A stretch of DNA of 60,922 nucleotides, the filler included, from Dugesia japonica (Eukaryota): the NCBI GenBank assembly GCA_001938525.1. It is 6 parts of 6 records of this genome, joined end to end, with 100 filler letters (N's around TTAATTAATTAA, not from the genome) between each part and the next. Parts side by side here need not be neighbours in the genome. Positions count along the whole stretch, not along the records: positions 30,698 to 41,712 come from MQRL01635238.1; 5 more parts are not named here. One strand, written 5' to 3'. The notes under the pieces were generated by a model. That model saw nothing but the letters and a program-made list of their open reading frames with translations. It was not told the DNA's origin and searched no databases. This document shows, one piece after another, positions 10,750 to 51,377 of this stretch (positions within the stretch are counted from its first letter, which is position 1; every line of letters begins with the position of its first letter). Both the position numbers and the translations under genes were made by a program.

Positions 10750-12153
10750 TTTTAATTTTTTTTCATTTTCTAATATTTTCAAAAGTCTTGCCATAAAAGG
10801 CTTTGTTTAATAATTTGAAATAGTTTGTCACCAAAAATATCTTTATATGCTTTTGCTTCTTTTCTTTTTTCAATATTGTGTAAAATATAACTCTTGAGTC
10901 AATAACTAATTTTCATTATAATTTTAATATGAGCTTTTTTTTTAAATAATTCCTTGTTTAAGATAATAATCTAAATTGCTTCCTAGTAGAATATAATTTT
11001 ATATCCAATTGGTTTAATACAAGCTTTTTATTTTTTGGCTAGTTATTTTACCTAACAGTTGTTTTTAAAAATCAATAAGCATGTCATATGTTGTTTCTTG
11101 TTGATCAACACAAAGTGAATAATATCTAGTTTTTTCTTTTATTGAATCTGGATATTCTAAATCTACTTCATAAATATAGTCAATAAATATTCCATGATCA
11201 ATTTTACCTGATGAGTCTACGAATTCCTGATTAGTAGTTGGAATATAAATCAAATTATTGCATTCAATAAATTCTCCAGTTGATAATATTTTAGTCATAC
11301 AAGCTGCATACAAACTATTTTCATCAAAATCTTTAAATGTATTATTTGGTGAAGATTTTACATAACGATTACCATTGAATCCAGAAAATCCTCATCTTAT
11401 CCCTCGTTCATTTTTTAATAATTTATCATAATCTTCAGATTTTACATAATTTAAATTGTTTTGGCAAATTTCATTCCAGTATTCAAAGTGAAACCTGGAG
11501 CAGATTAGCAATAGAAATGGTCTGTTCCATTTTCAATTAAACATTTATTTCTAAAGATTTCAAAAAAGTCTGCAAGGATAAATACATCTAGTTTCATCTA
11601 ATATTTATTATATTCCCACATGTTGACATGAGATTTGTATTCCTGTAAAAATAATTCATATTCTTTGTCTGTCATTTTCTTTGGTTTTAGTTCATTAAAA
11701 AAAGTCTTTTTAACTAGGAATATTATCACTTGTTAATTTTTGATAAACTGATTTATAATCTAATCCTTTAACATATTTATAGGGAAAAAACCTTTTTAGG
11801 AAAAAAGCCTTGATATTTTAATAATGGATATTTCTTTGCTTTTAAAATATTTTCTCCCATTGATTCTATAGAAATAAATGGACACATTTTAAGGGTATCT
11901 AAAAATTTAATTCGTTACAATATTAAATTACATTTTCTTTGAATTTAATTTGTACAAGCATCATAATGAGAAAGATAAATAAAGTATATTTCAAATTTTT
12001 CACCTGATACTTCAAATACATTTACTAGAAAATTCTTCTTCTTTTCGAATCTCTTTATCTCACAAATTTTCATTGGAAATTCTATTCCTGTAAAATCAAA
12101 ATCATTTTCATGTGATTTATAACTCAAAACATAATGTAAAGAAGGTGTCAAAA
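10750..12153 (-). pseudogene. Decayed protein-primed type-B DNA polymerase (Polinton/Maverick-like)
   Basis: FTGIEFPMKICEIKRFEK..VNVF, KGFFPYKY, LDVFILADFFE, SAPGF, ERGIR.GFS, DFDENSLYAACM..L.TGEF, YIYEVDLEYP. Confidence 0.8.
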
Positions 12154-12544
12154 NNNNNNNNNNNNNNNNNNNNNNNNNNNNNNNNNNNNNNNNNNNNNNN
12201 NNNNNNNNNNNNNNNNNNNNNNNNNNNNNNNNNNNNNNNNNNNNNNNNNNNNNNNNNNNNNNNNNNCTAAATTGCTGGATAAACTGTTTCAAACAAGAAG
12301 ATTGAATGGGTGAAAGAATTAGAAGACGTTTTTAATGGAATGAACGAAGTACTAATGATATCTCCAATATTATGTTTTCTAGATATAAAAAGATAATTTA
12401 CACGGATGCAAGTTTTGACACGATTAGTGCAGTACTATCTCAAAGAGACAACAATCGACAGAAAGAGCAATTACATATGAGTCTCACACAATGACGAGTC
12501 ATGAGAAAGTATATTGTACTACGCGGAAAGAATTACTCGCAATT

Positions 12545-13135
12545 TACTAATTTTGTATTCATTTCAAACATTGCTTATATGGAAAGATATTTATTCTTAA
12601 AACCGATAATAAGGCTATCACTTTTATGCTAAATACCAACAAACCGATAATATCACAGTTTCAAACCTGAATTAATTATTTGAACAGTTTAGATATAAAT
12701 TGGAATATAGAAAAGTATTGCTTCATACAAATACGGATATGTTGTCAAGGAGTAAATGCGATACATGTGCACAATGTCTAATGTCACATGAAGATCCCAA
12801 CAGTGGAAAATTAAAAACAAGGATACAGTTAAATACTGTTAAATACTACTTTTGTATTCATTTCAAACATTACTTATATGAGAAGAGATTTATCCTCATA
12901 ACAGACCATAAAGCTACCAGTTTTATGCTAAATACCAAAAATCCGATCACTTCACAGTTTCAAACCTGGATTAATTATTTGAGCAGTTTAGATATAAAAT
13001 TAAAATATAGAAAAGTATCGCTTCATACAAATTCGGATATGTTGTCAAGGAGTAAATGTGATACATGTGGACAGTGTCTAATGTCACACAAAGATCCCAA
13101 AAGTGGAGAATTAAAAACAAGGATGTTAAATACAG
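12545..13135 (+). repeat. ~300-bp tandem duplication inside the gypsy RNase H
   Basis: YFCIHFKH…KYRKV.LHTN.DMLSRSKCDTC.QCLMSH.DP.SG.LKTR occurs twice. Confidence 0.85.
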
Positions 13136-15181
13136 TAGATATTCACGAAAAACAAGTCAATTTTGGTGAAAATGATGAAGGAANNNNNNNNNNNNNNNNN
13201 NNNNNNNNNNNNNNNNNNNNNNNNNNNNNNNNNNNNNNNNNNNNNNNNNNNNNNNNNNNNNNNNNNNNNNNNNNNNNNNNNNNNNNNNNCAAAGTACAAG
13301 AAATTGTTCGAAGCTGTATAACACTTCAGGAAGCTAAAGTTTTAACAACAAAAACGAAGGAAAAAACAAAAATGACACAACCAGCCGAAATGTTTGAATT
13401 GTTATATTTAGATGTGTGTGGATCACTGCAAGAGGTCGAAAAAGATATGCTCTCGGTATAATGCAGTAAGTATATATCTATGATACTAATGGCAAGACAA
13501 GATGAAGATACCACACGGAAAGCAATAATGGAGAAGTGGATATTAAAGTTCTGGTTTCCGAGAGAAATTCGAGAGAAAAATGAAAGATTTTGCAGCTGAA
13601 CATGGAATTACCCTCAGGCTTTTGAATCCATATTATCCTAATAAAAATGGAAAAATCGAGAGGTAGTTTAGAACTATGCGAAATATGATGAATGTGACAC
13701 TTAAAGAAAAAAATCAAAGATTGGGCTGATGTATTGCCAGAGATAGAATTTACCTTGATTGCTACAAAAAGAAGATCACTGGGAAAAGCCCTGATAAAAT
13801 CGTGTTTGGGAAGAGAATAAAAAGAGAAAAATGGTAAAAAATATATTCTTAAAGAGAGCAAAAAGAACAAGATAAAGAGATATGACCAAAAGACAATTCA
13901 ATGTTGGTGATGAGGTCTTAGTGAAAATTGAAACAAGAAACAAGAACCAAGGTCGTTTTGAATGACCCTATAAAATCAAAGGAAAGGTTCACAACAGACT
14001 TTACATCCTGGAAGATACATGTCAAAATATTCACATTCATCGGAAAAAGTCTCGAAAAAAACGTAGAGAAGATCAAAAAAGTTCTTAAAAAGAGAATGTA
14101 AGTATGTTTTGAAAAGCGAGTTGAAATTTTTGTGGGGTTCGAGATCATTTTTCTTAAAATCTTTTAATTAAAAATAATAATTATTTTGTTTTAAAATTTT
14201 AAATGACGATTTAATAATAAAGTAAAACTTTTGTTTGAAATTTTAGTATTTGAAAAATAATTACCAATTAAAACATATAATTTTAATTTGTTTGAATAAA
14301 CAAAAGTGTTGGGTATAGTTTTGGATTTTTGTGAATAAATCTTTTATGTAATTGAGTTTTGACATTAATGATTCGATGAGTATTTCAAACTCATCTAATA
14401 ATATATATTATATCAAAATCTCAGGTTTGAACCTACTATGCCTCTTCCTCCATACTATCCGGATTTGTTATCACGTGACTTTTTTTATTTATCTGTTAAT
14501 AAATACATTCGTTTTAAACAACAAAAAAATTTTAATTCAAAAAATTATTTAATAAGCAAAGATCAAAATTGCTGTTCTTTTATTTTCAATATTTAAGCAT
14601 AGCCTTCTTCAGGAACTGTTGTTGAAAATATTTTGTACATGGCGGTATTTTTTAAAATTTCTTTTAAAAGCACGGTAGATCCAAAAAATATTAAAATCAA
14701 ATTTGATTTATTTTGAACAATGAAGATAATTGGTAATCCATAATTATTTTTGTAATTTTTTTTCTAAATTTTAATTTTTTTCACCAATAAAAATATAAAA
14801 AGAAGAAAAAAAAGAAATATAAAATATTACTTAGGAAACCATTTTTATACTTTTATTCATAATTTCTGGAAGTAATTAACAAAATTTTTCTTTAAATTTT
14901 CTATTTCTTGGTTATTTATAATNNNNNNNNNNNNNNNNNNNNNNNNNNNNNNNNNNNNNNNNNNNNNNNNNNNNNNNNNNNNNNNNNNNNNNNNAAAAAT
15001 AAGTATAAAAAGCCATATTGATTGTGCTTTGACCTTGTTTATAAATATGAGTGTTGTTTTGTGTTGGATTTAAATATAGTTTCTATGAATTCAAGAGTGT
15101 CAATTTCGTTTAGAAATTCCACTAAAAATAATTTTAGCTTTTATAAATAAAATTATTCATGTAGCAATAATTAATATAGAC

Positions 15182-20559: not shown

Positions 20560-21380
20560 ACTCACATTCCCCCTTTTAAGAAATTTTTTAATCTTTACGT
20601 TTCTTTCGAAACTTTTTCCGTTTGTATCTTCCAGGATTTAACGTCTTTCACGAAACCTTTCTCTTGATCTTCTAAAGTCCTTTATAACTATCTTGGTTTC
20701 TATTTCTGGTTTCAGGTTTCATTAAGACCTCATCACCAACCTCGAATTGTCTTTTGGTTAATATTTTTTCCTCTTGTTCTTTCTGCACTCTGAGTATTGG
20801 TTTCATACCATTTTTCTCTGCTGATTTTCTTCCCAAATACGATTTCGGCCGGGCTTTTCCCGATACTTTTCTGTTTTGTAGCGTTTAAAGTAAATTCTAT
20901 CTCTGGCAATAAATCCGCCCAATCTGAGGTTTTCTTTCTTTAAGTGTTGCATTAATCAGATCCCGCATAGTTCTAAACTNTCTCTCGATTTGCCCATTTG
21001 TGCTATAATGATATGGACTCGAAAACCTGAGGGAAATGCTATGTTCAACTACAAAATCTTTCATTGATTTAGACAAAAAAGCTCTTCAACAATCAACTCA
21101 TATTTTTCTTGGACACCTGAACTTAAATATCCACTTCTTCAATATTGCTTTCCGTATAGTATCATCTTGTCTTGTCATTACTATCAAGACTACATACTTA
21201 CTGCATTGGTCTATTATACCGAGAACATATTTTTTCCGACCTCTTGTCTCCGGCAGTGGTCCACACACATCTATAAATAACAGTTCAACATTTCGGCTGG
21301 CTGCGTCTTTGTTGTTTCTTTCTTCCCTTTTGTTGTCAACACTTTACCTTTTTGGATGTTATACAGCTTTGGACAACCTC
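20560..21380 (-). pseudogene. Ty3/gypsy integrase fragment, same family as 13290-14090
   Basis: ELLFIDVCGPLP, FSSPYHYSTNGQIER, DWADLLPEIEFTLNAT..GKSPAEIVFG. Confidence 0.8.
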
Positions 21381-23951: not shown

Positions 23952-26334
23952 TGTTGGGGTTCCACCTGAGTCGAATGATGATAAAAGTGTGGCTGGGGAA
24001 AAACAGCCCTCAGGGCAACCCGTTCAAGAATTTAACCTACCGCCCCCTATTAACATGGATAACACAATAGCTAAGAACGAGGAACTTGCACACCCTTATC
24101 CATCATGAGAGGAGACAAGGGTATGAGTTCCTTTAGTTTTAGTATGTCGTTTACTAGTTTATTCTCTCGGTCATGGCAGGACCGGATAATATCTGCCAGA
24201 GAACTCAACTGGTTTTTCCAGGCTCTCTCCTGTTGGTATGAAGCTTCGGCTTCGGCTTTGAAAGAAAAGCATTTTGTTTTATAGCGCTTAACCTTAGCCT
24301 CCGCATTAGCGACATCGGCCTCCCAGCGCCTTTTGGCTAGACTATAAAGGTCCCATGTGAGATCAAGGTCTTCATTTGTCTCTCGCAACTTTCATTATTA
24401 CGGCCATGTATTTTTAACCCGATGATGTCCATAAGAATCCGGTTACCATGTAGGGAATAATAATAGAATTGATAGCAAAAATAAAGCTGGTAGCTACCTC
24501 GCTTATCCTACGGACTTGGTCATAATATATTCAGTTATGCCGCTAATTGTCCTAATAACCCAGAAAGAAAGGATTAAAGCGCTAGATTGACTCTACTGAT
24601 ACCAACCCTCTGGCAATGGCCATATTAACCATTACGTTCATAATGGTAGACAGTATGGTCAAACTATAATAATATTAATAAGGTGTTGAATAATAGTGAC
24701 AATGATATCAATAATATTATCAATGATCATAATAATAATCCTTTGGTGATATTAATAATACCGGTTTCGTCCACACGAATATCATCAATGATGAATATAG
24801 CGTTGATCAGATTTATAATCCCCCATAAACCAATTATGATGATAAAGTATTTGTTAATATCAAATGGTGCACGAAATTATATGTTAATAAATGTAGAAAT
24901 CTTTTTTAATTCAGAAAGATATATATTTTTTTAATTTGCCTGAAGGTCATGATTTAAATAACTGCGGGGATAGGTTGCTTAGCAACACCAACTACTTCCA
25001 AGGATCATATTACACACAGATTTTAACTACTTGTAGGTGTGTAAACCAAAATGAACATTGGATTTTGCTAACCGTAGTCGATTTCACATGGGTTACCTTA
25101 GGGAAACGATTCATTGGGACAAATTAAGCTAAAATCTGAATGGTGAGTGATCGTTATTATGTTGAATTTGGGGACGTTATTAACGGTTATCGTTCAAATT
25201 AATCATATGGTGTAGTAGATCCGATGGTTGAAAATCCAGATAGCCGCAAAAATCAAATAACTAACCCAATTTATCTATTAATAAAATGTTTGAAAAAAAA
25301 AATTAATTTGAGTTCAATATTCATTTAATCCACATTAAAATTTTATTACATTAAACATAACATACAAAATACTTACTATTAAATAATCGGTACAAGTTCT
25401 GCAACAGAATAATAATTACCGGGGAATGAGCTGTATATTTTTCTTCCTTCTTCTTTACTTGATACCAACAGTTTAACTTTGACTGTGTTGATAAAATTGA
25501 AAATCAGTAATGCTTAATGAATAATTAATTAGGTGCGCGATAACGAGTTACGTAGTTTTCCGTTTGTGAATATTATAATAAAATTCCTGCTGAGAGTTTC
25601 GTAATAATTGAGAAGATATCTAATACGGTTTTTGTCACAAAACGTTAATGAAAATATCGTTATTTTTTTGTAGTTATTTGTTCTAACTTCATGCTTCCTT
25701 ATATATGGCTTTTCCTCGTACCCCAACTTTGTTCATATTCGTTGGTTATTTTTAGTTTGAAATAATCCATTTATATTGGCGCTGATGCTAGTTTTTAGAG
25801 TTTTTTTTCAGATGTTTTGGAATTCTATTGGTGCCCATTTCTGGAATGGCACATGATAATGATGCCTTTGTTTCATTTATATTTTTTAGGTTTCTTATAT
25901 GTCCGATCTTGGAAACCTTGCAGTAACCTTCTGTATGGTGGTGAGTTTTTTCTTCCGAGCAAGTTCAATGCTTCTTGTTGTTTTCTCTCCGTATTTTCTT
26001 GCCCGGATTTCCTCCGACTTTCCTGACCAGAGTTATTTGCATAAAACCGATTTTGTCTCAATTTTAATTAATTTTTCCGTTTAAATTAACTGCTATTTTT
26101 TGTATTTATTTCTTCTTTTGTTATTTATTTTCTTTAATAATTTTATTAATTTTGCGGTTATTGTTATTAATCACGTTTAATTTGATCTTCCGAGTTTTCC
26201 ATTTTTACTCAATATTATTGTCCGGATTTTCCATATTTGCTTTTCTTACCATGTTCCTTCTTGTACTTTTTATTTTGACATTGGGCTATTCATGACCCCT
26301 TGATTTTCATTCCTCTGGGTGTTTCGCCCCAACA
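23952..26334 (-). mobile_element. Long (2383-bp) solo LTR related to the giant element's LTR, with 4-bp TSD
   Basis: Termini TGTTGGGG (23952) and GTGTTTCGCCCCAACA (ends 26334), flanked by ATAT/ATAT. Minus-strand CCAAT-GGGGT-TATATAA promoter module around 25699-25780. Confidence 0.85.
24071..24388 (-). CDS. Small predicted coiled-coil ORF inside the solo LTR
   Basis: 105-aa stop-free, locally GC-rich frame with heptad-like A/L/K/E pattern; TTG start only. Confidence 0.4.
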   Translation of the reverse strand: MRETNEDLDLTWDLYSLAKRRWEADVANAEAKVKRYKTKCFSFKAEAEASYQQERAWKNQLSSLADIIRSCHDRENKLVNDILKLKELIPLSPLMMDKGVQVPRS

Positions 26335-28783: not shown

Positions 28784-29648
28784 ATGGCAGTCAACGGGAA
28801 AGCTGATTGTATATTAGTTAATGGTAATCATGCATATGATGATCAAAATATGGATATAGCCACTACACCATCTGGTGAAAGTGATAATAAATTAACTTCG
28901 TCAATCAGACAAACTGAAATTTTAAGATGTTTTGCTCAGTATTTGTTAGAAAAAAATTATAAGTAATATATTTTATATTTAATGTTTTTTATAATTTTAA
29001 TTTTTTTAATAGGGAAACTTATGATAAATTAGTTTCAGAATCTGGAGTTGTTTTGGAAAATCATAATGTAGCTAAGTTAAGAGAATCAGTTTTATCTGGA
29101 GATTGGGTTGAGGTAAATATTTTTTGTAATTATCCAATACTGAAAATTTAAAAGGCAGAAGATGCTTTATCTAATTTGAAATTTGAGGTTAATTCTGAAG
29201 AACACTTAAGACAAATGCAATTTCTTATTTTGGAACAAAGAATTTTGGAGGCCATGGAAGACAAAAATTTTTTACACGGTGTTGAATTACTCAGAGAAAG
29301 ATTAACACCGATGAATTTAAACAGAGACAGAGTTCATCATTTAGCAACGTATTTATATAACTCCTTTGTATATTATTAAAAAATACAATTACTGTTTAGA
29401 TGTCTCATGTATAAAGAAATCTCAGAGTTGCATAATATGGCCAGTTGGAAAGGTAAAAATGGCGGCAGCAGAGAAATCTTAGTGGATAAGTTACAAGGTT
29501 TTATACCTGCTCAAGTTATGTTACCTCCGAAGCGCCTTGAAACACTTTTTAATATGGCTATTGAATATCAAATTTCCAAATGTCCATTTCATAATTCAGG
29601 AATTAATCTCATGGACCAATCGTTATTACAGAATCATGAATGCGGACG
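28784..29648 (+). CDS. WDR26: WD repeat-containing protein 26 (GID7/CTLH complex subunit), 5' four exons: 28784-28962, 29013-29112, 29155-29348, 29400-29648; WD40 exons not in this segment
   Basis: Spliced product …EILRCFAQYLLEKNYKETYDKLVSESGVVLENHNVAKLRESVLSGDWVEAE…MQFLILEQR…LRERLTP…RVHHLATCLM…SREILVDKLQGFIPAQVMLPPKRLETL…C.FHN…SLLQNHEC matches the WDR26 LisH/CTLH region. Three GT-AG introns of 50, 42 and 51 nt preserve the frame. Confidence 0.92.
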
Positions 29649-29899
29649 GTGAGATTTGGACTTTTATATTTATTATTAATTACAAATTTTGTTATTTTTT
29701 CATATAAATATTATAAAATATCAGAAAAAATAATTTTTAATTAATATTTAATTTTAGTGTTTTTCATGATTTCATTGTATTGTTAGATTTTTTTAGAAAT
29801 ATTCATCAGGATCTACGCCTTATAAATAAATTAAATCTAATACATTCATTATATATTACAATTTATATTACATTATATATATTACATATAAACAAAAAC

Positions 29900-30597
29900 C
29901 CCCAATAAATGACAATTTTTCGAAAAAATAAAATTTTATACAAAATATTGTACCAAAAAATTTTAATTATTGGAAAAAATTTAAAATTAAACTAAATAAA
30001 TTGAAATTATACCAAAAAAATTAAATTTATACGAAACAAAATAAAAGTATACCAAAAAAATTGAAATTATTGGAAAAAATTAAAATTAAACCAAAAAAAG
30101 ATTATCTAAAAAAATTAAAATTAAACCAAAAAATTAAAATTGTACAANNNNNNNNNNNNNNNNNNNNNNNNNNNNNNNNNNNNNNNNNNNNNNNNNNATT
30201 AAAATTAAACCAAAAAATTAAAATTGTACAAAAAAATAAATATTTACCAAGAAAATTAAAATTAAACCAAACAAAAATTAAAATTAAACCAAAAAAAATT
30301 AAAATTATATCAAAAAAAAATATAAATTATACCAATAAAATTAAAATTATACCCAAAAAAATTAAAATTAAACCAAAAAAAAATTAAAATTAAACCAAAA
30401 AAAAATTAAAATTATAGAAAAAATTTAAATGATGATACCCAAACAAAATAAAATTAAACCAAAAAATTAAAATTGTACAAAAAAATAAAATTATACCAAA
30501 TAAATTGAAATTATTGGAAAAAATTAAAATTAAACCAAAAAAAGATTATCTAAAAAAATTAAAATTAAAAAAAAGATTCTACCAAAAAATTAAAATT
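29900..30597 (+). repeat. Low-complexity satellite (AAAATTAAAATTA(A/T)ACCAAAA-like units) in WDR26 intron
   Basis: Visible ~20-bp tandem units. Confidence 0.85.
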
Positions 30598-30697
30598 NNN
30601 NNNNNNNNNNNNNNNNNNNNNNNNNNNNNNNNNNNNNNNNNTTAATTAATTAANNNNNNNNNNNNNNNNNNNNNNNNNNNNNNNNNNNNNNNNNNNN
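30598..30697. other. Artificial contig spacer
   Basis: N44-TTAATTAATTAA-N44. Confidence 0.97.
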
Positions 30698-31666
30698 CCC
30701 GAAGGAGACAAAATCACAATTAAAATACCAGTTTATTATACAGTAAAGCATATACGGGAAAAATTGCCGTTTAAGCCACCATATAAACTTTTGGACGAAG
30801 AAGGAATAGTGGAGGACACCACCCCAATTGGACTAATAAAGATCGACTTAGTTAAACCTAATATACTGTGGATTTTTCCNNNNNNNNNNNNNNNNNNNNN
30901 NNNAAAAGACGCAGATCCTTATAAAGCAGCGGATAAGACCAGACCGATAATGGGTGAGACCTCCGGTATGTTAAAGGAATATAAACATCGAACACAACTT
31001 GCAGCTAGCCAAATATTGCGGCCAACAACAAACCAATCAGGAAGTACTGAAGCATCTCGGGAAACTAAAGGAACCCCTAAAACCAGCCAGAATGGGGAAC
31101 GCGAAATATTCGGATCCCCATCAGCAGATAAATCAGCCAAAGACGAAGATGAGGTACAAATTACAAAATATTCCCCTCCCACTGGGAAAAGTAAGGAAAT
31201 AAAGAAAACCGACACCGCACTAAAGAAGAAATATGACCCTACCAAAGTTGACTTGGATGAAGAAGATATATTGNNNNNNNNNNNNNNNNNNNNNNNNNNN
31301 NNNNNNNNNNNNNNNNNNNNNNNAAGACCAACCATTATCACCAATATTGAGTAGAATAGCGAAAGAATTACTATCTTCGGTAATGAATGATTTGATCGAC
31401 GCAAATCATCCGTTAGAGATAGAAAATCCAATAGAAATAGAAGAGAAAGAGGCACCACCAAAACCAGTACGCACCCGAGTAGACGCAGAAACAACCACGG
31501 AACCGCGTAATCGGAGTAGACCAAGAACGAAACCCCCAGGAAATCCGGAAGAAGAAGAAGCAATGAAACAAAGACGATTAGCAACCTCAATAAACCATCA
31601 AACCAAGAGATTAGCAACGGTAGATAGTAGCAAGAAAGATACCACGAAAAATCAACGGATGATGAC
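30698..31666 (+). pseudogene. Polyprotein upstream region: possible ubiquitin-like domain (30698-30880) followed by charged/disordered linker
   Basis: PEGDKITIKIPVYYTVKHIREKL…YKLL…IVEDTTPIG…ILWIF aligns by eye with ubiquitin GKTITLEV…TIENVKAKI…QRLI…LEDGRTLS…TLHLV. Confidence 0.4.
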
Positions 31667-32137
31667 ATGCCCACGGAGGTCGTAATACGACAATTATTGC
31701 TAATGCTATATCCAGAACTAAAGATATGGATTNNNNNNNNNNNNNNNNNNNNNNNNNNNNNNNNNNNNNNNNNNNNNNNNNNTCCAGAACTAAAGATATG
31801 GATTGGTAAATTTCAATTATCCGATACCCTCAGACCATTAGCAAAAGAAATAGAAGTAGCCATCAGGAAATTTCCTGCTACTAAAGGAAATAGTCATGGT
31901 ACTAGAGACAATCTAGAAGGGGTGATGGATGAACTGTTACAGGATTCACCCACAAACGGAAGAGTAGTAGTATCAATAGCACACTTAATCAATNAGACAC
32001 ACTTATCAATTGCTAGAAGTAAGCCGTCAAAAAACTTCATTCTCAGTAAGTTGCCGATAGTGGATCTAATGCAAAACAAAATAGTACCATTGATAAAGCA
32101 ACAAGGTGGATGGAAAAAGTTTATTGAGACCATTTGT
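31667..32137 (+). CDS. Bcl-2 family domain within the retroelement polyprotein
   Basis: BH4-like TEVVIRQLLLMLY, BH3-like LSDTLRPLAKEIE, BH1-like LEGVMDELLQDSPTNGRVVVSI and BH2-like KIVPLIKQQGGWKKFIE, in canonical order and spacing. Confidence 0.8.
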
Positions 32138-32245
32138 CCTAAGCCTCAACCATCACATGAAAATGCAACTAGAGTGATAAGAGTCGTTCGGGATCAGTTA
32201 AATGAAATCGAGAATGGATGGACACGTGGACCACATGGAAATTCA

Positions 32246-34446
32246 TGGCAAGCGTTAGCAACCACGATACTCGTATTGTTCTTAATGATGGGCAGAAGCG
32301 AAGCCATATTGGCATATGACTGTGACGGAATGCAAGTTGGAAAGGAAGTCTTTTCGCTGGTAGATACGGAAGAATGCCCAGATGCAAACCCTGAAAAAAT
32401 CTCACTCCGTAACAATTCTGTCTATCATCTCTATCAGGAGTCGGATTATTATAAAGCCCAGGTACGCGAGTGTGCNNNNNNNNNNNNNNNNNNNNNNNNN
32501 NATTGCGGGTACCATAGTTATACGTCAATAATCGACCCAGGAACGGTGAGGCATCCTGTACATCTAACCGGACAGCAATGCGATGAAGGATTTGCTACAG
32601 GAAAAATTACCATCAAACATGGTACTCAGGTTGTTGCCAAGAAAGAACATGTAATCGACCAACCTATAGAAGCAGCAGGAAGTATATCCACCCATAAGNN
32701 NNNNNNNNNNNNNNNNNNNNNNNNNNNNNNNNNNNNNNNNNNNNNNNNGTATGGCAATATGCAATAGCAATCGAAACCTACACGGTAGAACTCAAGGAAT
32801 ATGAAGCATATTTCGATGCCCAAGATTTGACGATGAAGGGAAGATCATACTGCAAGGCAGCCGATGGGGCATGCAATACAGGCACATCAACATTGACATA
32901 CAAAGTAGATCACCAGGACTGTAAGTTGGCATATCTAAAAGAAGCCGTGTTTAATGAATACCAAGGACAACGTGCAATAACACCTACTTATCAAGCACCC
33001 CCAGCAGGTAATCTAAAAGAGGTAATAGATAATTTCAAGGAAACCATAAAGACAGGCCCAAAATCCTATGACCAACAATGGCACGCAACGCCGACGGTAT
33101 TAATGTCTTCGGAACAAGACGAGACTATCCGGTTAATCAAGGGAAATTCCATTTCAAAATGCGGGCAAATATTATTTAAAACAAACTATAAAGGAATATT
33201 CGTGTCCGAACATCGAATAAGAATAGCGAAAGCCGCAGTAATGTCACAAGACATCAAATTACATCTCTTCACCAATAATAAACTGGACAATATATTTCAT
33301 CGAATGCAAGATACCATCGGACAAATGTACCACGACCTCGTTCAAAATGACTGCACGTTAAACAAAGAAATATTAAAAACAAAATTAGCGATGGCAGTTA
33401 CGAACCCTGACAGTGTCACTCCATTACTTTCATTGGAAAAGGGACAATTCAGCCGAATAGTAGGAGAAGTAATGTACTTATACAAATGCAAGGCCATTGA
33501 TGCCGAATTCTCGTCTAATCCAAAACACTGCTACAACGAAATAGAAATTATTCACAACAAGGAGAAAAGATATTTACAACCCATTACTCGAATAATATCG
33601 CCGTTGGGTTATAGACCAAATATCATAAACTGTTCTAATGTATTTGGGCCACAATACGTAATGACAGACGGGTCATGGATAAGATTTCCTCAACGAATGG
33701 CAGTAGGAGTCGAACCACGAAAGTTTTCAATGTTACGGCTAAATGGGGGCATGCAATTTACCCCAATCGATATAAATAAAGGAGGAATCTACAGCAGAGA
33801 AGATTTAGAAAAAGCCAGAGAATATATGTTGTTTCCAGTCCGAAGGATGCAAATTCTCTCCAATATAGTACAATTAACCAGTGGAACCAACATCAACGGG
33901 CGAGTAAATTATGACGCACTATTACCAGCTGATCACTTCCAAAAAGCCACCGAAAATGTTATGAAAAAAATGTGGGGAAGATTCATAATATTTGGCCAAG
34001 CAATGGCAGGATTGTTGGGAGTTATGTTAATAATTTCAGTGACACGAGTAGTAATCACTCAATTATTCGCATGTTTCGATATATACAAAAGAGAGAAAAA
34101 AGTGAACTGGAAAATGGTAACAGGAATTTTTCCATTCTTAGCTAAAACCATGGTGCTTAATAGTCACTCCAAGGACATCGACAGAGTAAAGAGATTCATC
34201 CGAAAGCTCGGACAAATACGAGGATCAGACAAGGAAGTCATAATACAATTCCGACTATTGTGCGAAGAAATGAGCAATGCTAAGAAGAAAATATCATATT
34301 TCAATCAATTCAAAGAAAGGTTTAAAAATAAGGACGCAAGTAGTAGCAGTAGCAACGATGATAGAGGAGAAAACAGTGGAATACCACATGTACCCAGTTA
34401 TAAAACCGCTATGGAATATGATGCAGAATTCAAGAGACAACAATAA
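32246..34446 (+). CDS. Envelope glycoprotein, chuvirus(Jingchuvirales)-G-like, with internal signal (32246-32305) and C-terminal TM (~33982-34077)
   Basis: Signal-like WQALATTILVLFLMMGRSEA, then LAYDC…SLVDTEECP…YQ…C…CGYHSY.S…C…C….G.C…KC…L.KTNY…NNKL…C…GEV.YLYKC…CYNE…YLQPITRII…C…P.Y…GSW…GIYS. Frame continues from 32749 after an N gap. Confidence 0.85.
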
Positions 34447-34794
34447 GAAAAGATCAGCAAGATGCAACGACTAAAGAACGCGTTCAAGTTCGGAGGTGGA
34501 GAAAGCATACCAGCACCCGCACAAATGTATTATAACGCTTATCCGCAACAGGGTTGGCAACCCATGAGCCAACCACCACAACCAGTATGGGCACCAGGCA
34601 CGATGTACAACAACCCGTATATGAGCCCACCACAAGCCCCGAATATGGTCATGTTAACCGAAAATAATGTATCCACTATGTACCGAAGAATAATTGAACC
34701 AAATTTACGAGCTCCGAATAATCAAATCACAGAGGATGATAAGTTAGAGACACAAACGGTTTGTATGATGATTTCTCAGAAAGCAAAATTATTA

Positions 34795-35070
34795 CAGAAA
34801 AGGATAAAAATCGACGGAAGATGGATAATAGCTATTATCGATACAGGAGCAAGTGCGACGTTAGTTCATAAAAGGATATTGGAAGATTATCGTCTACTCA
34901 GAATAACAATTAAATAAGGTGTTATTATCACGGCCTCTGGAGAAAAAATCTCGCCCATTGGGGAAGCAATATGTGCAATAGAAAGCGATGGAACTCGATT
35001 CTGGCATAAATTGCAGATAATGAACGAAGTAGCATTCGATTGCGTATTAGGATTAGACCTGTTGCCACGA
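34795..35070 (+). pseudogene. Retropepsin domain 1 (in-frame TAA at 34915)
   Basis: IKIDGRWIIAIIDTGASATLV (DTG at 34840) … *GVIITASGEKISPIG … DCVLGLDLL. Confidence 0.88.
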
Positions 35071-35394
35071 CTCTGTCCAGATGGACTATTGGATTTGAGC
35101 AAACTAACCATCCGTGAAAACTATAATCAGGAATATGCACCAATAGGTTATTATAAAACGAGAATTATAACACAACCAAAACGACCACCACAATGGACTC
35201 AGCAAAGCTCAAGTAGCCGAAAGGAACAAGGCAACTCCAATCAGAACCATCGAAATATCACCAATACAGCCACCATGATAAAGGATGACTGGATACGGTT
35301 CCAAGAACGGGAACCCAGATGGAAAAGCAAACCACAATTAAACGCCATTAATAACCCATCAGATGTAGTATGCACGAGTCTCAATGGTGGGCCA

Positions 35395-35670
35395 GTATTA
35401 ACTATTATAGTTAGAATCAACGGTCGATCTATAACCGCTCTAGTGGACACCGGAGCAACCATATCATTACTATCTATCGACGAAATTGCGATAACAGAAT
35501 ATAAAAACATAGTACCCACAAATACTACCGCAGATGTAGCGAATGGCAGTAGTCTGAAAATTTTTGGAGAATTGGCCTGTGAAGTCGAGTACCAAGATAA
35601 TAAAATTAAGCACAATATGATTATAGTAGAAATGATGGGACAGTACATTCTAGGGACGGACATTCTTCCC
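35395..35670 (+). CDS. Retropepsin domain 2
   Basis: VRINGRSITALVDTGATISLL (DTG at 35446) … VANGSSLKIFG … YILGTDIL. Confidence 0.92.
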
Positions 35671-36059
35671 ATTCTGATGAAAAATGGAATATTGAATTTC
35701 TCAACATTACGGTTACAATCATTGGAGGGCTATACCCATGTAAAGGATCACGAAGTATTTACCACGCAGGAAATTTTGGTGCCCAGTAGATGCCAAATAT
35801 ACTGTGTAGTCANNNNNNNNNNNNNNNNNNNNNNNNNNNNNNNNNNNNNNNNNNNNNNNNNNNNNNNNNNNNNNNNNNNNNNNNNTACGGCAGGAGGAAT
35901 AACCACCGTAAATAAAAGCGGAGAAATACCAGTCAGCTTGATTAATTTCACGGAAAAAGACATCAAAATCAAGCCAAACTTCAGGATGGGTACATTAACA
36001 CCCATCGAACTAGAACCTACCATAATAGACGAAGTAGCCACCGAACCAGAAATCAACCG

Positions 36060-36597
36060 AACATTTAAAGTAGAAACAGAGACTTTGACGGAGGATCAAA
36101 AACAAGCAATACTGCAATTACTAGAGGAGTTTCGAGACATTGTTGCATGGACCGATGAGGAATTAGGTATGTGCACCGCGACAATGCATACCATTCCACT
36201 AACAGATGAAACNNNNNNNNNNNNNNNNNNNNNNNNNNNNNNNNNNNNNNNNAAAGAATTCGCAAATAAAGAAACAGCCAAATTAGTGAAAATAGGCGTA
36301 ATAGAACCTAGCTGCTCACCATGGCAGTCACCAGTGGTGTTGGTAGATAAAAAAGATGGCACACTGAGATTTTGCATTGATTACAGAAGATTAAATGCCC
36401 AAACTAAGTAGGATACATATCCATTACCAGATATCAATGAACTGTTGCAACTACTGTGTAATGCTAAAATATTCACCATATTAGATCTGCGAAGCGGTTA
36501 CTGGCAAATAAAGATCAAACCCGAAGATAGGGAGAAAACCGCCTTCTCTACAGGCAAAGACTTGTATCAGTTTATCCGTATGCCATTCGGGCTTACT
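36060..36597 (+). pseudogene. Reverse transcriptase, N-terminal half only (TAG at 36409; YxDD region deleted)
   Basis: [40 protein letters not shown]…LDLRSGYWQI…KTAF…MPFGLT, joined directly to QQSFETLRDKLLTAPIL. Confidence 0.93.
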
Positions 36598-36599
36598 AA

Positions 36600-37040
36600 A
36601 TGCAACAATCATTTGAAACATTACGTGATAAATTATTAACCGCACCAATTCTAGTACATCCAGATTTTAAAAAGCCATTTATATTAGCCACCGACGCTAG
36701 TGGATACGCGATGGGGGCGGTGTTAAGTCAATTGGATGAACAAGGGAGAGAAAGAGTAATAGCGTATTTTAGCAAGAAATTCCAAGGAGCATAATTAAAT
36801 TACAGTACCACGGAACGAGAGATAATGGCAATCGTGAAGGCTACCAAGCACTTCAGGTCATTGATACATGGACATGCAGTATTAATCTATACGGATCACT
36901 TACCAATCACTTTCATGGCCCAGAAACCACTGCGATGGAATAGGATGGCCAAGTGGCAATTGGCAATGCAAGACTATTGTCCACTGTTAAAATTTAAAAC
37001 AGGTAAGGCAAACTCCAATGCCGACTGCCTGTCCAGAATC
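36600..37040 (+). pseudogene. RNase H (TAA at 36792)
   Basis: PFILATDASGYAMGAVLSQ…IAYFS…NYSTTEREIMAI…YTDH…NSNADCLSR. Confidence 0.93.
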
Positions 37041-37339
37041 GGTGGACCAGAAGCTACAGAAAACACACCAGAAAATACAGAAACGTTTACCTTACGAGAA
37101 TTATTGGAGAAGAAAGTGGGCATGGTATATTTTATTTTAGCCGAAGATAGAAATTTCGACGGATTGAAACAAGCACAAACAGACGATGAAGAAATAAAGA
37201 TCATCACAAANNNNNNNNNNNNNNNNNNNNNNNNNNNNNNNNNNNNNNNNNNNNNNNNNNNNNNNNNNNNNNNNNNNNNNNNNNNNNNNNNNNNNNNNNN
37301 NNNNNNNNNNTTGACAGCTCAGGATGGAGAAAACACCGT

Positions 37340-38315
37340 ATTAGTTATTCCTAAAGTACGACGAGCTGCGTTACTAGAGCAGTACCACAATGGGGTACTC
37401 GGGGACATATGTCCCATAAGAAAACTGAGTCCAAGCTGAGACAGAAATATTACTGGCCACAGATGACGGAATCGGTAAAGGAATGGATTGCTAAATGCCA
37501 AATATGTGCAGCCAGAAGAGGAACAGGAAAGAGAGTAAAAGCATTACTAAAATCCATTGCGGTACCAGCAGCACCAATGGAAATAATTGCCATGGATGTA
37601 GTAGGACCACTACCACCTACTTTAAGCGGGAATATTTACATCCTCACCATATCGGATTATTTATCTAAATTCCCGGAGGCATTCCCTATGAAAAATCAAA
37701 AAGCAACCACCATCGCAGATATCCTGGTACGTAAGGTTTTCAGTCGTTATGGGACGCCAAAGAAAATATTGACGGATCAAGGGAAGAACTTTATGAGTAA
37801 CGTCTTGGCAGAAATATCGAGTTTCCTGAAAATTCACCAATTACGAACTTCACCATACCACCCACAAACGGATGGGTTAACGGAACGATTTAACAAAACC
37901 TTGATCAATATGCTGTCCAGTTATGCTCAAAAGAAACAAAATAATTGGGATAAACATATTCAACTTTGCTTATTCGCGTATCGGATGAGTGTACATCGGC
38001 AACGAAATACACGAAATTCGGTCTTATGTATGGTAGGGAGTGCAACATGCCGATTGACTTAGAATTCCAACCACCAATAACGCAATATCAAGACGAAACG
38101 GATTTTGCAGCAAATTTCAAAGAAACTATGCAGAAAATCTGGAAACAGGCAAAGGAGAATGTAGGTTTCTACCAGGAGAGCTACAAGGATCTACATGATA
38201 AATCAGCAATGCAACATTCCTTTAAAAAAGGTGTCATGGTATTGATCAATCTACCGGACATTTGTGTCGGTACAACATCGAAATTAAAAAGACCATGGCA
38301 AGGACCGTATGAAGT
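37340..38315 (+). pseudogene. Integrase (HHCC, DDE core, GPY/F), two frameshifts
   Basis: YH…GH…YYWPQM…CQIC; AMDVVGPLP; ISDYLSKF; LTDQGKNF; SPYHPQTDGLTERFN; WQGPYEV. Confidence 0.95.
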
Positions 38316-38624
38316 TAAACGGTCTCAGCGAGGACGCTGAGTTTAAAGAAAACGGGGAAGGATTAATATCGGGAGAAGAGAGTCTAGTAAAACCAGAAAC
38401 GGGTCTACCTACCGCAAATTCGGAAAGTACAGAATCAGAATCGCAAAAGATAAAGGGAGTATTAAGGACTGATAATTTTAAACACACCACCAACATAGAA
38501 AAGGCTGAGGAAAGTAGTACAATCATAACCACTTTACCAAATATTTCAGTGTAGGAGCAAGGAAGTAAATTATGTAAAATCAAATATGCATTAAGTAATA
38601 CCTTGTAATTATAAAGAAAATGTT

Positions 38625-40144
38625 ATGAAACAAAAAACTAAAACAATACCTTTCAATTCAGGTAGCCAAATGCGCCGACCACTTATAATAGAAGTCATGA
38701 GCGCCACCACACTCTACCCAATCATATACCAAGGAATCCAAACGCCGGAAACAGAGGAGAATTGTGCTCATATCATAAAGATAACGTGCCCACTTTCAAT
38801 AACACAACTGGAAGGAAGCTGTGCGCAATGTATAAAGAAAGCGCAAATCATACTAAAAACTACATGGAGGGTTATTCATGAGCAAAAGGCATGGTTATCA
38901 AGACGAGAGAATTGGTTCAAAAAAGATTGTGAAGGGTCACGAATCAAACTACCAATTGAAGCACCTATCCGGCAATCTACCGTAAAAAAGTCATGTTAGT
39001 CCTGCACCAAAATATACAGCGAAAAGTTGTTAACAGCCATTCATTTATTTCACCTTACGCTAGTACAATGGAATTGGATTAGAGTATACGAACCACAAAA
39101 AATTCTATTGCCAGGAAGTATGAGTGGACCACCAATCAAAAGATATCTAACCTGGGAAAAATCGAAATCGAATAATATCGTAAAGCCCGTAAAAGAAGGC
39201 AAAATCCAAGGGGAAGCAACAAAAGAAAAATTGCAAGAACAAGAAGANNNAATGGAAGAAAGAGAAAAGCAATTAGTCCGAACAACGCACAGAAGGACAA
39301 AGAAAAGGAAAATGATCGAGACACCGGAGGAGGCGGAACAAATGAAACCAAGTGAACCAAAAAAGAAATTATTACAAGAAAGTAAACAGAAGAATACCTT
39401 GGGAATGATAATTAGGTCATTCTTGATGTTATGGGTAATNNNNNNNNNNNNNNNNNNNNNNNNNNNNNNNNNNNNNNNNNNNNNNNNNNNNNNNNNNNNN
39501 NNNNNNNNNNNNNNNNNNNNNNNNNNNNNNNNNNNNNNNNNNNNNNNNNNNNNNNNNNNNNNNNTCTGCCAACACTGGCAATTCAGCAAATACCGATTCC
39601 AGATCAGAATCGAATGTTTAATGAACAAATAATACTCATAATCTTAGTAATAGTGACAAAGGGGATTAAATGCCAGGATTGCTGGACTAATGAGATAATA
39701 TTAACGGAACATAGAATCCATATTTATGACCATAAAACTACCATTCGAACCATGAGTAACGACGGGAGAAAGCGCGAAATAAAAGTTTTCGAAAGTTATG
39801 AACAGGTATCGGTACTATTAAAACCAGCCATCGATGGATCTAAGGGGAGCCGAATGCTACTATCCTGGTATGCGTGGAAAGCAAGTTTATGGTACAAAGG
39901 TGATGTACCGATAGACGGGCAAGCAATGCACTTCAACGAGAAGGACTGGTGGATGCATTCAGCACAGGAAATTCAAGGGGAACAAAAAAGAAGAGGTAGC
40001 CAGATACACAGTAGAACCTCGATATGGACCCATAACCAATTCAAAAGAAACCTGTCTCAGTCAATCGTGACAGAAATATTACGAAAATACGGTTCCGAAC
40101 TCCGAACTGGCGTCCCGAGCAGTATAATGGAAGAAGTCGATTAG
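38625..40144 (+). pseudogene. Additional 3' ORF(s) of unknown function between integrase and LTR
   Basis: 38625-38999 and 39027-39440 are in the same frame, split by one TAG. Cys-containing N-part, charged middle, hydrophobic stretches (LGMIIRSFLMLWV; IILIILVIV), then ~190 further open codons. Confidence 0.55.
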
Positions 40145-40414
40145 AACAAGCGAAGCCCGGTGTAAATAAACTGTAATTAAAATTAAACTATAGTGACTAT
40201 CTGATCATAGTAAATAAATGAACTATAAATGTATCAATGTATACCGTAGTAAATGTATAATATAGAAAATTTATGTATGTGTTATGAGACTAGCATGTAA
40301 TGACCTTAGAATTTGCCTTGATCTGTCAATTTTAATAGGGTCAAAGGATTTTCTGCAGCGGGGACGGGCAATGACAAATTCCGGGACGGAATTTAAACAA
40401 GACGGAGAGCGATT

Positions 40415-41712
40415 TGTTGGGGTGAAACACTCACTAAAGTAGAGAATAGTCAATATCAGAATTTACAAGGAAAGAAATAAAGCACAAAAGCAACATGAAA
40501 AGGAAATGAAGTTAAAATAAAGAAAATGCGGGGAAAATAGAAGCCACTTATGATCATTAATTAAGAAAAATTAATAAATGAAAAGAATTAACAAGAAAAA
40601 ATATTATGGAAAATAATTAATTAATATGGAAAAATTAATTAATTTCAAACGAAAAATAAACAAAATTAGATAAAAATGTTTTTTACCATTTACTCCGGCC
40701 CAGGACGTCAGAAAAAGTTCAAACAAGAAAAATTGAATAGAAAACAAGTCGGTGCAATTAGAATNNNNNNNNNNNNNNNNNNNNNNNNNNNNNNNNNNNN
40801 NNNNNNNNNNNNNNNNNNNNNNNNNNNNNNNNNNNNNNNNNNNNNNNNNNNNNNNNNNNNNNNNNNNNNNNNNNNNNNNNNNNNNNNNNTTGCCAATCAT
40901 GGCACCAAAATTCAAATAAAATCATAGAAAAATGGAACGAGAACCAATAGCAGCAGAAAAACGTGGATCCAGAAATACCCACAAACCAAGAGCGAGTCGG
41001 GGTGTCGTGAAAATCGTATATAAGGATTTTCAAATTTAACAGAAAAAACCATTAATTGTAATTTATCAACCGAAGTTAGAAAAACTACATTTAACTCATA
41101 TTTCTTACTTGGATATTCGGAACTATTATCTAGCCACTTATATCTTCGTAAATATCACCTATCAGTGTTCTCCGATTTACTCATAGCGTATTTTGCGAAG
41201 TTGTTTAAGAATTTTGAATCAGTTATAATTTTTAAGAAATTCAAGAAGCCGCGGAAATTTCAGTTTGTCAGGATCAACACAGGATTGGTGCAGTGTTAAC
41301 AAAAACCCCGTTACGGAAATCAATACTTTTACTCAGCAAAAATCGAATTCAAGTAACAACTTTTCTTTCTGATAATTATATGTGATGTAAAATTTTGTTT
41401 TCCTTAAATTATCGTTAATAAACTTGATCATAAAAAATTTTCTTTTTGTTAATATTAGTATTTATCATTTAATTCGACAATTTAAGTTGATCTAAAGTTT
41501 CTAATAAATAATATAAAGGTGATCCGTTAACACATNNNNNNNNNNNNNNNNNNNNNNNNNNNNNNNNNNNNNNNTATAAAACTAATACGGTTATGTTCTT
41601 ATGTTTCCATCTGTTATTCCGTACCTTGCGTATTCACTAAAATTGTTATAGCATCAAATTCTTAAGTAACATTATCAGTTAAAATAATTTAAAGGAGTTA
41701 AAAAAGCGTTTA
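40415..41712 (+). repeat. 3' LTR (right end not determined) with CCAAT (40944), GGGGTGT and TATATAA (41017)
   Basis: TG start after purine-rich AAACAAGACGGAGAGCGA. The same terminal 16-mer occurs at 47220, and a 1-mismatch reverse copy ends at 26334. Confidence 0.8.
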
Positions 41713-41812
41713 NNNNNNNNNNNNNNNNNNNNNNNNNNNNNNNNNNNNNNNNNNNNTTAATTAATTAANNNNNNNNNNNNNNNNNNNNNNNNNNNNNNNN
41801 NNNNNNNNNNNN
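41713..41812. other. Artificial contig spacer
   Basis: N44-TTAATTAATTAA-N44. Confidence 0.97.
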
Positions 41813-42287: not shown

Positions 42288-42629
42288 ATGGCAAAAAGTT
42301 ATAGGCGAAACCTCAAGAGGTCCCGATATATCTGGCCATACATCGACAGTGACGGAACCTACTACATTGAGTGGTCCGAAGTGCAGGAGATGGTCCGTCA
42401 GGAGAAAAAATTCCGTATTGAAGCGACTTCTGGCCTCAGCGCTGATTTGGATATTGCGAACTTACGAATCTCTATCCTGGAGACGAATAATCGGCTGTTG
42501 ACATCTCAGCGAGATCGACTGATGACGGTCCTCGAGAAGACCGATTCGACCGCTGCAAGCGGGGACGTTCAAGCACCGGAGATAGATCCAAGCGGGGACG
42601 AGTTTGAAGAAGGAGAACTGGATTCGTAA
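42288..42629 (+). CDS. Small coiled-coil/acidic-tail ORF, possibly LTR-borne
   Basis: 113-aa intact GC-rich ORF. ATG is directly preceded by TTATTAG (acceptor-like). LTR-type end CCCAACA at 43552-43558. Confidence 0.5.
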   Translation: MAKSYRRNLKRSRYIWPYIDSDGTYYIEWSEVQEMVRQEKKFRIEATSGLSADLDIANLRISILETNNRLLTSQRDRLMTVLEKTDSTAASGDVQAPEIDPSGDEFEEGELDS

Positions 42630-50470: not shown

Positions 50471-50722
50471 TCAATTTATCGAAGCAAACTGTACAAAAAT
50501 CGCTCTATTTTCATCTGGTAGATTATCAACAGTTGGCTGCTCTACTTTTGTTGAATTGTGTTTTGATAAAGAATTTGTTACGGATAATTTTGCGCATTCT
50601 AGCATTGCAGTTTTCAATAATTTGATTTCTGTTGTTAAACCATCAATATCTTTACGGAGCTTACGATTTTCATTGATGACAATTTCCGATACTTCACGAC
50701 GAATATGAAGTCGCGTTTTCAA
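50471..50722 (-). CDS. Possible coding exon/remnant with coiled-coil; unassigned
   Basis: ENRKLRKDIDGLTTEIKLLKTAM heptad pattern in an 83-codon open frame. Confidence 0.3.
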   Translation of the reverse strand: MKTRLHIRREVSEIVINENRKLRKDIDGLTTEIKLLKTAMLECAKLSVTNSLSKHNSTKVEQPTVDNLPDENRAIFVQFASIN

Positions 50723-51377
50723 ATTTAAATGATTACGAAACGCATTGAAATGACAAATGCTGTCATTTTGAAAATCGGATTTGGTTGCTAAATGAAATCA
50801 AAATGTTAAAAAAAATTAAAGTAGTAGTAGTAGTAGTANNNNNNNNNNNNNNNNNNNNNNNNNNNNNNNNNNNNNNNNNNNNNNNNNNNNNNNNNNNNNN
50901 NNNNNNNNNNNNNNNNNNNNNNNNNNNNNNNNNNNNNNNNNNNNNNNNNNNNNNNNNNNNNNNNNNNNNNNNNNNNNNNNNNNNNNNNNNNNNNNNNNNN
51001 NNNNNNNNNNNNNNNNNNNNNNNNNNNNNNNNNNNNNNNNNNNNNNNNNNNTGTATATTATTGAATAATTAATATTTATTTTCTGTGTAAAAAACAGCTG
51101 TTTTAATAATATAGTTTATGAAACAATTTTGTGGAAGATTTGAAAACAGTTCATTGTTAATTCTATTTCGTAAAAGTTGTTTAAGTATATTTTGTAAATT
51201 TTTATAATCTAAATTATATTTTTGTCTATTTTTAGACAATATATTTTTTGTAATTTTATATTATTTATAACCTTGTAGAAATTGTATTTTTGATAGGTTA
51301 ANNNNNNNNNNNNNNNNNNNNNNNNNNNNNNNNNNNNNNNNNNNNNNNNNNNNNNNNNNNNNNNNNNNNNNNNNNNN

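Follow-up and report, generated by a model that had tools for sequence, protein, structure and literature searches.

Results

The stretch of DNA analysed here, henceforth the window, is 60,922 nucleotides long and comes from the assembly GCA_001938525.1 of Dugesia japonica. Its positions 30698-41712 are one entire draft-assembly scaffold (MQRL01635238.1), with a 100-base linker at either end (30598-30697 and 41713-41812). On the + strand, to which all coordinates of the element refer, this scaffold carries in order a Bcl-2 fold, a signal helix, an envelope glycoprotein (Env), two proteases (PR), a dUTPase-like domain, a reverse transcriptase (RT), an RNase H (RH) and an integrase (IN). We regard it with good confidence as the fragmentary remains of a Burro-type Ty3/gypsy element, i.e. 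an errantivirus of the GAG-ENV-POL kind, from a very abundant family. The copy is dead and truncated at its 5' end: the element is cut at the linker at 30598-30697, so that gag and any 5' long terminal repeat (LTR) lie outside the window. The coding span up to the inferred terminal stop exceeds 3,100 codons and has a GC content of 36-39%, against 13-39% (mostly 20-30%) in the rest of the window. There are 11 N gaps of at least 20 bases in the scaffold. The domains named when this locus was first read as a Bcl-2/Env/Pol polyprotein are all present: Env, both proteases, RT, RNase H and integrase by Pfam, and the Bcl-2 domain with a match below the cut-off and a supported fold.

The region upstream of Env

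The scaffold opens with the end of a small domain (30698-30879) that resembles a stretch upstream of Env in a relative, P0004 (35% over 51 aa, E 2.4e-06), and that is ubiquitin-like by position only. It is followed by a charged low-complexity linker (30904-31630), matching no Pfam family, in which the frame shifts near an N gap and again near 31625. The Bcl-2-fold domain (31652-32140; Pfam E 0.0084) is split by a gap of 50 Ns with a 22-base duplication on its flanks. It keeps the motif that we take to be BH2, and what we take to be BH1 is degenerate: GR is kept and W replaced in the window, and most relatives keep just a basic residue. The predicted structure (pLDDT 67.7) gave 31 first rows that were all of the Bcl-2 fold in the VIA fold comparison (48,161 chains), the best at Z 12.4 with an rmsd of 2.9 over 133 residues, a Z that the tool rates unsure for helical bundles. 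The Foldseek rows listed for the model all agree on this fold (E 0.007 and weaker), and a profile of six relatives' Bcl-2-like domains found a sole match among 1310 window pieces, the Bcl-2 ORF (E 1.8e-10). Modelling and profile together support the presence of a Bcl-2 fold despite the weak sequence match. As originally proposed, this domain is in the same frame as the N-terminus of Env, and the stretch from BH1/BH2 to the Env start is free of multi-base gaps.

Env

Hydropathy places a hydrophobic helix at 32246-32305, which we read as the internal signal sequence of Env and as a putative anchor of the upstream Bcl-2 part. All 21 element-type Envs examined have a hydrophobic core just ahead of Env, and both stand-alone glycoproteins examined have one where their signal peptide lies; the distance from this core to BH2 is 53-88 residues. 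The ectodomain that follows (32306-33984, with N gaps at 32476-32501 and 32699-32748) is of class III, gB-like and of the chuvirus/mononegavirus type by Pfam and fold searches. It matches PF24664 (Monjiviricetes fusion) with E 8.9e-19 and 3.5e-61. When its C-terminal 451 residues were modelled (pLDDT 75.5, pTM 0.52), the best structural match was the glycoprotein of Tacheng tick virus 4 (E 2.5e-17); of the 40 matches with E<=0.001 most are glycoproteins of chu-like and further negative-strand viruses, and some are herpesvirus gB. Against the PDB, herpesvirus gB rows lead, the best at E 1.5e-03 and none reaching 0.001. A transmembrane helix, also placed by hydropathy, ends the ectodomain (33985-34077), and the Env tail with a Pro/Gln-rich linker (34078-34790) contains a stop at 34444 in a part where relatives are open from Env to protease.

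The original prediction took this Env to be captured from a negative-strand RNA virus lineage. The chuvirus/mononegavirus gB-like type stands, but the direction of capture does not follow from the Env tree, which is unrooted. In this tree of 33 rows (32 of 42 matches plus the window), the window falls in a 17-row group of mostly element-borne Envs, with a support of 88/87 that lies under the starred bar.

Pol and the reading frame

Protease 1 (34795-35075; Pfam E 0.0038, for its N-terminal part only) has its DTG and is broken by the stop at 34915; protease 2 (35400-35680; PF13975, E 4.3e-08) has its DTG and is open. The original prediction overlooked a dUTPase-like domain (35740-36015; Pfam E 0.075), which stands between protease 2 and RT and has an N gap inside. 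A three-row profile of this domain gave seven matches in the PDB, all of them dUTPases (best E 0.004), a weak but specific result. Of RT there remains the N-terminal half (36253-36600; Pfam E 6.2e-08), with a stop at 36409 and the catalytic half gone; relative to P0012 and P0015 some 130-140 codons are missing, including YxDD. This half is 54-70% identical to nine relatives, P0002 being the closest (70%). RNase H (36603-37040; Pfam E 8.8e-15) is in another frame, with a stop at 36792, and the integrase (37311-38316; Pfam E 2.9e-14), which comprises zinc finger, core and C-terminal GPY part, occupies three frames that change near 37403 and 37997. The best match of the integrase in the PDB is the Ty3 Gag-Pol (E 1.5e-23), and the Pol order PR-RT-RH-IN with a Ty3/gypsy-type integrase is that of Ty3/gypsy elements (Metaviridae).

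From 32749 to 36636 a single frame has 3 stops in 1296 codons (34444, 34915 and 36409), against 40-120 stops in the other five frames. Env, both proteases and RT are thus co-framed and parted by single stops, as had been claimed, and two of these stops are indeed within conserved domains, 34915 in protease 1 and 36409 in RT. Continuity of the frame holds at the Bcl-2/Env start and from the end of Env to the middle of RT, but not in RNase H and integrase, nor across the 50-N gap at 32699-32748, on either side of which the Env halves are in different frames. Since the true length of this gap is uncertain, the frame relation of the two halves is not readable from the sequence; another gap of the 50-N type is bridged by family contigs with far fewer letters.

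The post-integrase extension and the 3' region

Some 600 codons beyond the integrase had been overlooked. This extension (38317-40144) is fragmented. It includes a hydrophobic core resembling a signal (about 39629-39667) and some 160 residues outside known families; Pfam and profile and pairwise comparison with relatives gave no credible family or homologue for this domain. Its end, an inferred stop at 40142-40144, is followed after 16-18 bases by an AATAAA-core motif (40161-40176), a candidate 3'-end processing signal. The 15-base AATAAA-core pattern was picked after viewing three sites. It has a single match in the window (0.02 expected) and a single one in either of two relatives, L001 and L002, always 16-18 bases past the last stop. 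This common position suggests that the polyprotein originally ended at 40142, some 600 codons past the integrase.

The following 40145-41001 is a non-coding 3' region that contig depth marks as repeated in the genome, and no LTR or polypurine tract was recognised in it. Rfam gave no match over 38300-41712, and the RNA fold of 40320-40460 is not significant (z -1.46). As a side observation, within the window 40369-40430 alone is matched by RNA reads of a more distant family, which are unlike it on both sides.

Abundance of the family

The element belongs to a very abundant family. From one DNA run, 47,525 contigs align to the scaffold, 4,419 of them at identities of at least 99%, 12,216 at 95-99%, 22,679 at 90-95% and 8,211 below 90%; a run labelled as a second organism gave 9,496. 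Sequence changes among family contigs are mostly transitions. Summed depth, which is not copy number, is 34,000-167,000 over 30698-38425 and 85-280 past 41002. It drops to 775 at 39530-39897, which makes the post-integrase domain the least shared coding part.

Relatives and the single polyprotein

With the Bcl-2/Env-start stretch as query, 103 matches were obtained among 1.84 billion representatives, and 7 of them align across both domains. Relatives were scanned against Pfam in sets of 2, 22 (of the 103), 6 and 6 proteins or loci. Env runs into protease in one frame in 13 scanned relatives, and through to the integrase in 7. Among metagenome loci, 2 of 27 stretches have unbroken ORFs. That of L001 (3426 aa, 5' end open) encodes a Bcl-2-like domain (E 1.3e-13), Env, three proteases, RT, RNase H and integrase; that of L002 (3703 aa) encodes Gag zinc knuckles, a ubiquitin/SUMO-like domain, Env, two proteases, RT, RNase H and integrase. 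The inference that the ancestral element made one polyprotein is borne out by these one-frame relatives, with L001 extending it to the Bcl-2-like domain. Gag is found in P0001, P0008 and L002. The ubiquitin/SUMO-like matches are weak: there are two in L002 (PF11976, E 0.034) and P0008 also has one. The number of proteases in the clade goes from one (P0002) to seven stretches in P0108, whose ORF of 4844 aa also has ankyrin repeats.

Membrane helices are similarly arranged in several of these proteins. There is one strong helix between Env and RT in the window, L002, P0002, P0015 and P0029. L001 has an additional signal-domain-anchor pair between its proteases, and as its helices come as a pair RT would stay on the same side of the membrane. 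Six of the seven relatives that reach the integrase have a signal-like helix and an anchor after it.

Further loci were sought among metagenomes with a single Env (0 of 28 stretches), viral contigs (0 of 31) and prokaryote genomes (0 of 11), and an earlier scan of viral-contig loci likewise gave no confirmed relative. In a word-index search for polyproteins of 2269-5000 aa, none of 2323 candidates passed; this search also missed existing relatives of such length.

Several side observations concern these relatives. Protease copies are dispersed along the polyprotein in P0108, P0015 and P0007, some of them past the integrase. Downstream of the polyprotein, L001 and L002 have a DEDDh/RNase T exonuclease ORF (L001:10617-12107, E 1.4e-05; L002:12085-13473, E 0.0011), of which there is none in the window scaffold, and also a small coiled-coil ORF. 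The first downstream ORF has its ATG right after a pyrimidine-rich AG, as if made from spliced RNA (L001:10610-10620, L002:11365-11378). A repeated domain of about 80 residues stands behind signal-like helices (L001:4814-5251, L001:9104-9967, L002:10069-10866; also P0012, P0015 and P0108), with pairwise E down to 6e-07, and is once inserted between proteases. By eye it is fibronectin-III-like; Pfam gave no match. P0012, an Env-Pol polyprotein of 2627 aa, is filed under a Flavobacteriaceae metagenome bin, which is probably eukaryotic contamination of the bin.

Other features of the window

Outside the scaffold, a spliced WDR26-like host gene with a CTLH domain lies at 28788-29649; its introns are about 40-50 bases long and 139 of 148 exon residues are identical to P0107. 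Fragments of another gypsy family (protease-like, RT, RNase H, integrase) are found at 7077-7897 (-), 12292-13607 (+) and 20654-21343 (-). Two of them form an inverted pair, about 81% alike, and no Env match was found beside them. Two further pieces, at 11068-11391 (-) and 5479-6202 (-), resemble a Polinton-type DNA polymerase and a LINE-type RT on visual inspection; Pfam gave no match for the two pieces scanned. Short coiled-coil-like ORFs lie at 24074-24391 (-), 42288-42626 (+) and 50474-50797 (-), two of them in GC-richer islands; neither of the two that were compared matches the accessory ORFs of L001 and L002. An AT-rich tandem array of 20-22-base units occupies 29935-30597, at the end of the neighbouring scaffold.

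Discussion

The layout that first drew attention to this locus is not new. In the part of PMC6431247 at hand, Burro/GYPSM1 of planarians is described as an element of more than 30 kb with LTRs and one ORF of about 4,900-5,100 aa. This ORF encodes Gag, a Ubi2/SUMO-like domain, BCL2, an in-frame Env with matches to mononegavirus fusion proteins, PR, a dUTPase-like domain, RT, RH and IN, so the architecture for which novelty had been suggested, BCL2, Env, PR, dUTPase-like, RT, RH and IN in one ORF, is already there. According to the same portion of text, Burro has accessory MATH, BIR, ankyrin and Smc-like domains, occurs in thousands of copies in dugesiid planarians and as decaying fragments in one planarian species, and might tinker with host cell death, an unconfirmed possibility. 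In the window we find a BCL2-like domain upstream of Env, an Env between BCL2 and PR (in-frame across the whole order in L001, with an N gap inside the window Env), and the weak but specific dUTPase-like domain between PR and RT. The element therefore very probably belongs to the Burro group and works like Burro. According to PMC8532177, Burro1 is de-repressed in planarians depleted of piwi. The excerpts of PMC8532177, PMC13238120 and PMC12440569 that we could consult add no domain detail on Burro.

A second line of evidence comes from errantiviruses with a gB-type Env. As far as the accessible text of PMC13524379 goes, GAG-ENV-POL elements of this type occur in nematodes, bryozoans and flatworms, with six in Schmidtea mediterranea, and they are not one clade. 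The window has a class III gB-like Env ahead of Pol. In the portions of the Env sheet of this paper available to us, we compared five short motifs of the window and one of relatives. These six gave seven matches, all seven in S. mediterranea rows; three motifs were matchless. A 66-residue stretch of the window Env is, by eye, identical to Smed_errantivirus_5 at 34 of 66 positions, and the 18 nematode Env rows that the consulted part of the supplement contains are unlike it.

How might such a polyprotein work? One long mRNA would give one chain, starting in the cytosol with Gag and the ubiquitin-like and Bcl-2 domains. The hydrophobic helix after Bcl-2 would direct Env into the lumen of the endoplasmic reticulum, and a cut by signal peptidase could leave the Bcl-2 part tail-anchored, like cellular Bcl-2 proteins. 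The transmembrane helix of Env would bring the chain back to the cytosol, where proteases, dUTPase-like domain, RT, RNase H and integrase would be tethered to the Env tail until the proteases of the element free them, and a second signal past the integrase would export a further product. By analogy with other Ty3/gypsy elements, Gag cores would copy the RNA and integrate. Env may permit budding and cell-to-cell spread, and the Bcl-2 fold may act in the producing cell by binding death or immune proteins of the host. More tentatively, Burro might be the described tip of a wide membrane-threaded clade, with Pol on the Env tail, an Env signal that doubles as the tail anchor of Bcl-2, proteases repeated one to seven times, and a fast-changing post-integrase surface protein acting as attachment partner of the gB-type fusogen, in a family that was once infectious. 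We think this possible rather than probable; if true, a Ty3/gypsy virus would have had an entry system of two glycoproteins.

The joining of domains could have a trivial origin, namely a one-off nested insertion or a misassembly that put a viral glycoprotein and a fragment of a host bcl-2 next to a gypsy pol. After all, this is a draft scaffold with 11 larger gaps, one of them flanked by the 22-base duplication, and among the contigs listed none spans that gap. Yet no multi-base gap interrupts the sequence from Bcl-2 to the Env start, nor that from Env to protease 2, and depth is high across all coding domains. Moreover, the Bcl-2/Env block stands beside PR in relatives as well: the same junctions in the independent records L001, P0005, P0006 and P0008 effectively refute such an accident, and because relatives carry the order in one unbroken frame a nested insertion is excluded. 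We consider the chances of this explanation negligible. A lineage of GAG-ENV-POL elements with the same architecture, separate from Burro and housed in a non-planarian invertebrate, would make Burro only a cousin. The relatives, which come from metagenome assemblies, are only 36-46% identical in Env, such elements are not one clade according to PMC13524379 as far as consulted, and two proteases go unmentioned in the Burro text available from PMC6431247. Against this, the Env motifs match only S. mediterranea among the rows at hand, the 18 nematode rows being unlike, and the abundance fits the thousands of copies and decaying fragments that the same text reports for dugesiid planarians. Such a separate lineage seems improbable to us.

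Another issue is the stop at 34444, which falls where the Env tail ends and interrupts no domain. In gammaretroviruses Pol is made by occasional read-through, and the stop might likewise be an original boundary, with Gag-Bcl-2-Env as one product and Pol made by occasional read-through. ORF breaks in this region have precedents in the clade, as P0001, P0006, P0007 and P0014 stop downstream of their proteases. But no stop parts Env from protease in 13 relatives, among them P0002, which is nearest by RT, and the copy carries many other lesions. We find read-through slightly less credible than a separate lineage. Finally, the element might spread only within cells, Env and Bcl-2 being passengers, or active just in the producing cell, and no particle crossing to another cell or animal. 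The degenerate BH1 and the lack of Bcl-2 in many relatives would fit. Still, the cysteines, signal and anchor of Env are kept among relatives only 35-45% identical, which speaks for long selection on a membrane fusion fold. Purely intracellular spread has an appreciable but minor chance; as it concerns function, it can be true together with the identification as a Burro-type element.

Some results weigh against this identification or against the proposed working. The scaffold may unite pieces of different copies across its gaps. Cut at both ends, it contains neither gag nor an LTR pair; MATH, BIR, ankyrin and Smc-like domains are missing from the 16 scaffold pieces scanned with Pfam, parts further upstream falling outside the scaffold. 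A nine-row integrase tree, whose relatives did not include any Burro, did not settle where the window belongs. For 30698-30879 a ubiquitin-like fold has no Pfam match and an hhalign value of 3.5%. The Bcl-2 match (E 0.0084) is under the Pfam cut-off in the window, as it is in all five relatives with a match. Profile search did not detect a Bcl-2-like domain in L002, and nine other long relatives (P0001, P0004, P0007, P0012, P0014, P0015, P0029, P0063 and P0108) are devoid of it, which makes the domain optional in the clade. The topology evidence is hydropathy only. P0108 has one strong extra helix between Env and RT whose partner is below threshold, P0063 has two helices before Env, and P0012 has a second weak helix after that of Env. 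The post-integrase part of the window shows no anchor helix and no homology to its counterparts in relatives. As for expression, about a quarter was read of each of two oligo-dT RNA runs labelled as the same species. This yielded 83 and 6 reads, none of them 95% alike, and hence no sign there that this family is expressed.

The locus itself adds little, because its headline layout is known and the copy is dead; its value is comparative. The Bcl-2/Env/Pol polyprotein is a layout that recurs with some modules being optional, namely Bcl-2, the ubiquitin-like domain, additional proteases and a surface protein past the integrase. It also offers a testable topology for making Gag, Env and Pol from one chain. 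Shorter relatives with unbroken Bcl-2-like domains make the question of host-death tinkering easier to test at the level of the domain. What interest remains lies in four features, namely the one to seven protease copies within the clade, the modelled tethering of Pol to the Env tail, the signal-led module past the integrase and the post-stop motif. None of them was found in a literature search that left out subscription journals and Repbase; within the same limits, searches for tandem proteases, or for Bcl-2-like domains with a signal peptide, in retrotransposon polyproteins came back empty. It may be that multiple proteases or a module past the integrase already appear in prior Burro figures or supplements.

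Comparison with known systems

The Bcl-2-like domain shares the helical bundle, BH2 and a C-terminal hydrophobic helix with cellular and viral Bcl-2 proteins (Bcl-xL, Hydra Bcl-2-4, BHRF1, poxvirus Bcl-2-fold proteins). It differs from them by an identity of only about 10-20%, by the replaced tryptophan of BH1, a motif eroded further in relatives than in the window, and by being embedded in a polyprotein. With glycoproteins of Chuviridae and other Monjiviricetes the window has PF24664 and the Env fold in common, whereas identity is only about 13-25% and the window Env sits inside the polyprotein of a Ty3/gypsy element. Anakin elements, which carry such glycoproteins, are BEL/Pao according to the consulted parts of PMC13524379 and PMC12440569. 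Anakin and the window element thus both carry a chuvirus-type glycoprotein, but the latter is Ty3/gypsy.

Closer to the window are the HSV/gB-type errantiviruses of Platyhelminthes (group C1a, Smed_errantivirus_1-6), with Env before Pol, a gB-type Env and, by eye, a run of 13 residues identical to Smed_errantivirus_5. These are intact copies whereas ours is dead, and over the stretch compared the window is identical to none of them. The words 'Burro', 'Bcl', 'apoptosis' and 'in-frame' have no occurrence in the main text of PMC13524379 as available to us. Burro can be compared by its partly accessible description only: on that basis, the two proteases of the window and the signal-led module past the integrase are differences, both unmentioned in that text. 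The likenesses include the weakly matched ubiquitin/SUMO-like domain of L002 and the ankyrin repeats of P0108 among the relatives and, for the window element itself, a BCL2-like domain directly before an in-frame Env, a dUTPase-like domain between PR and RT and a very high copy number.

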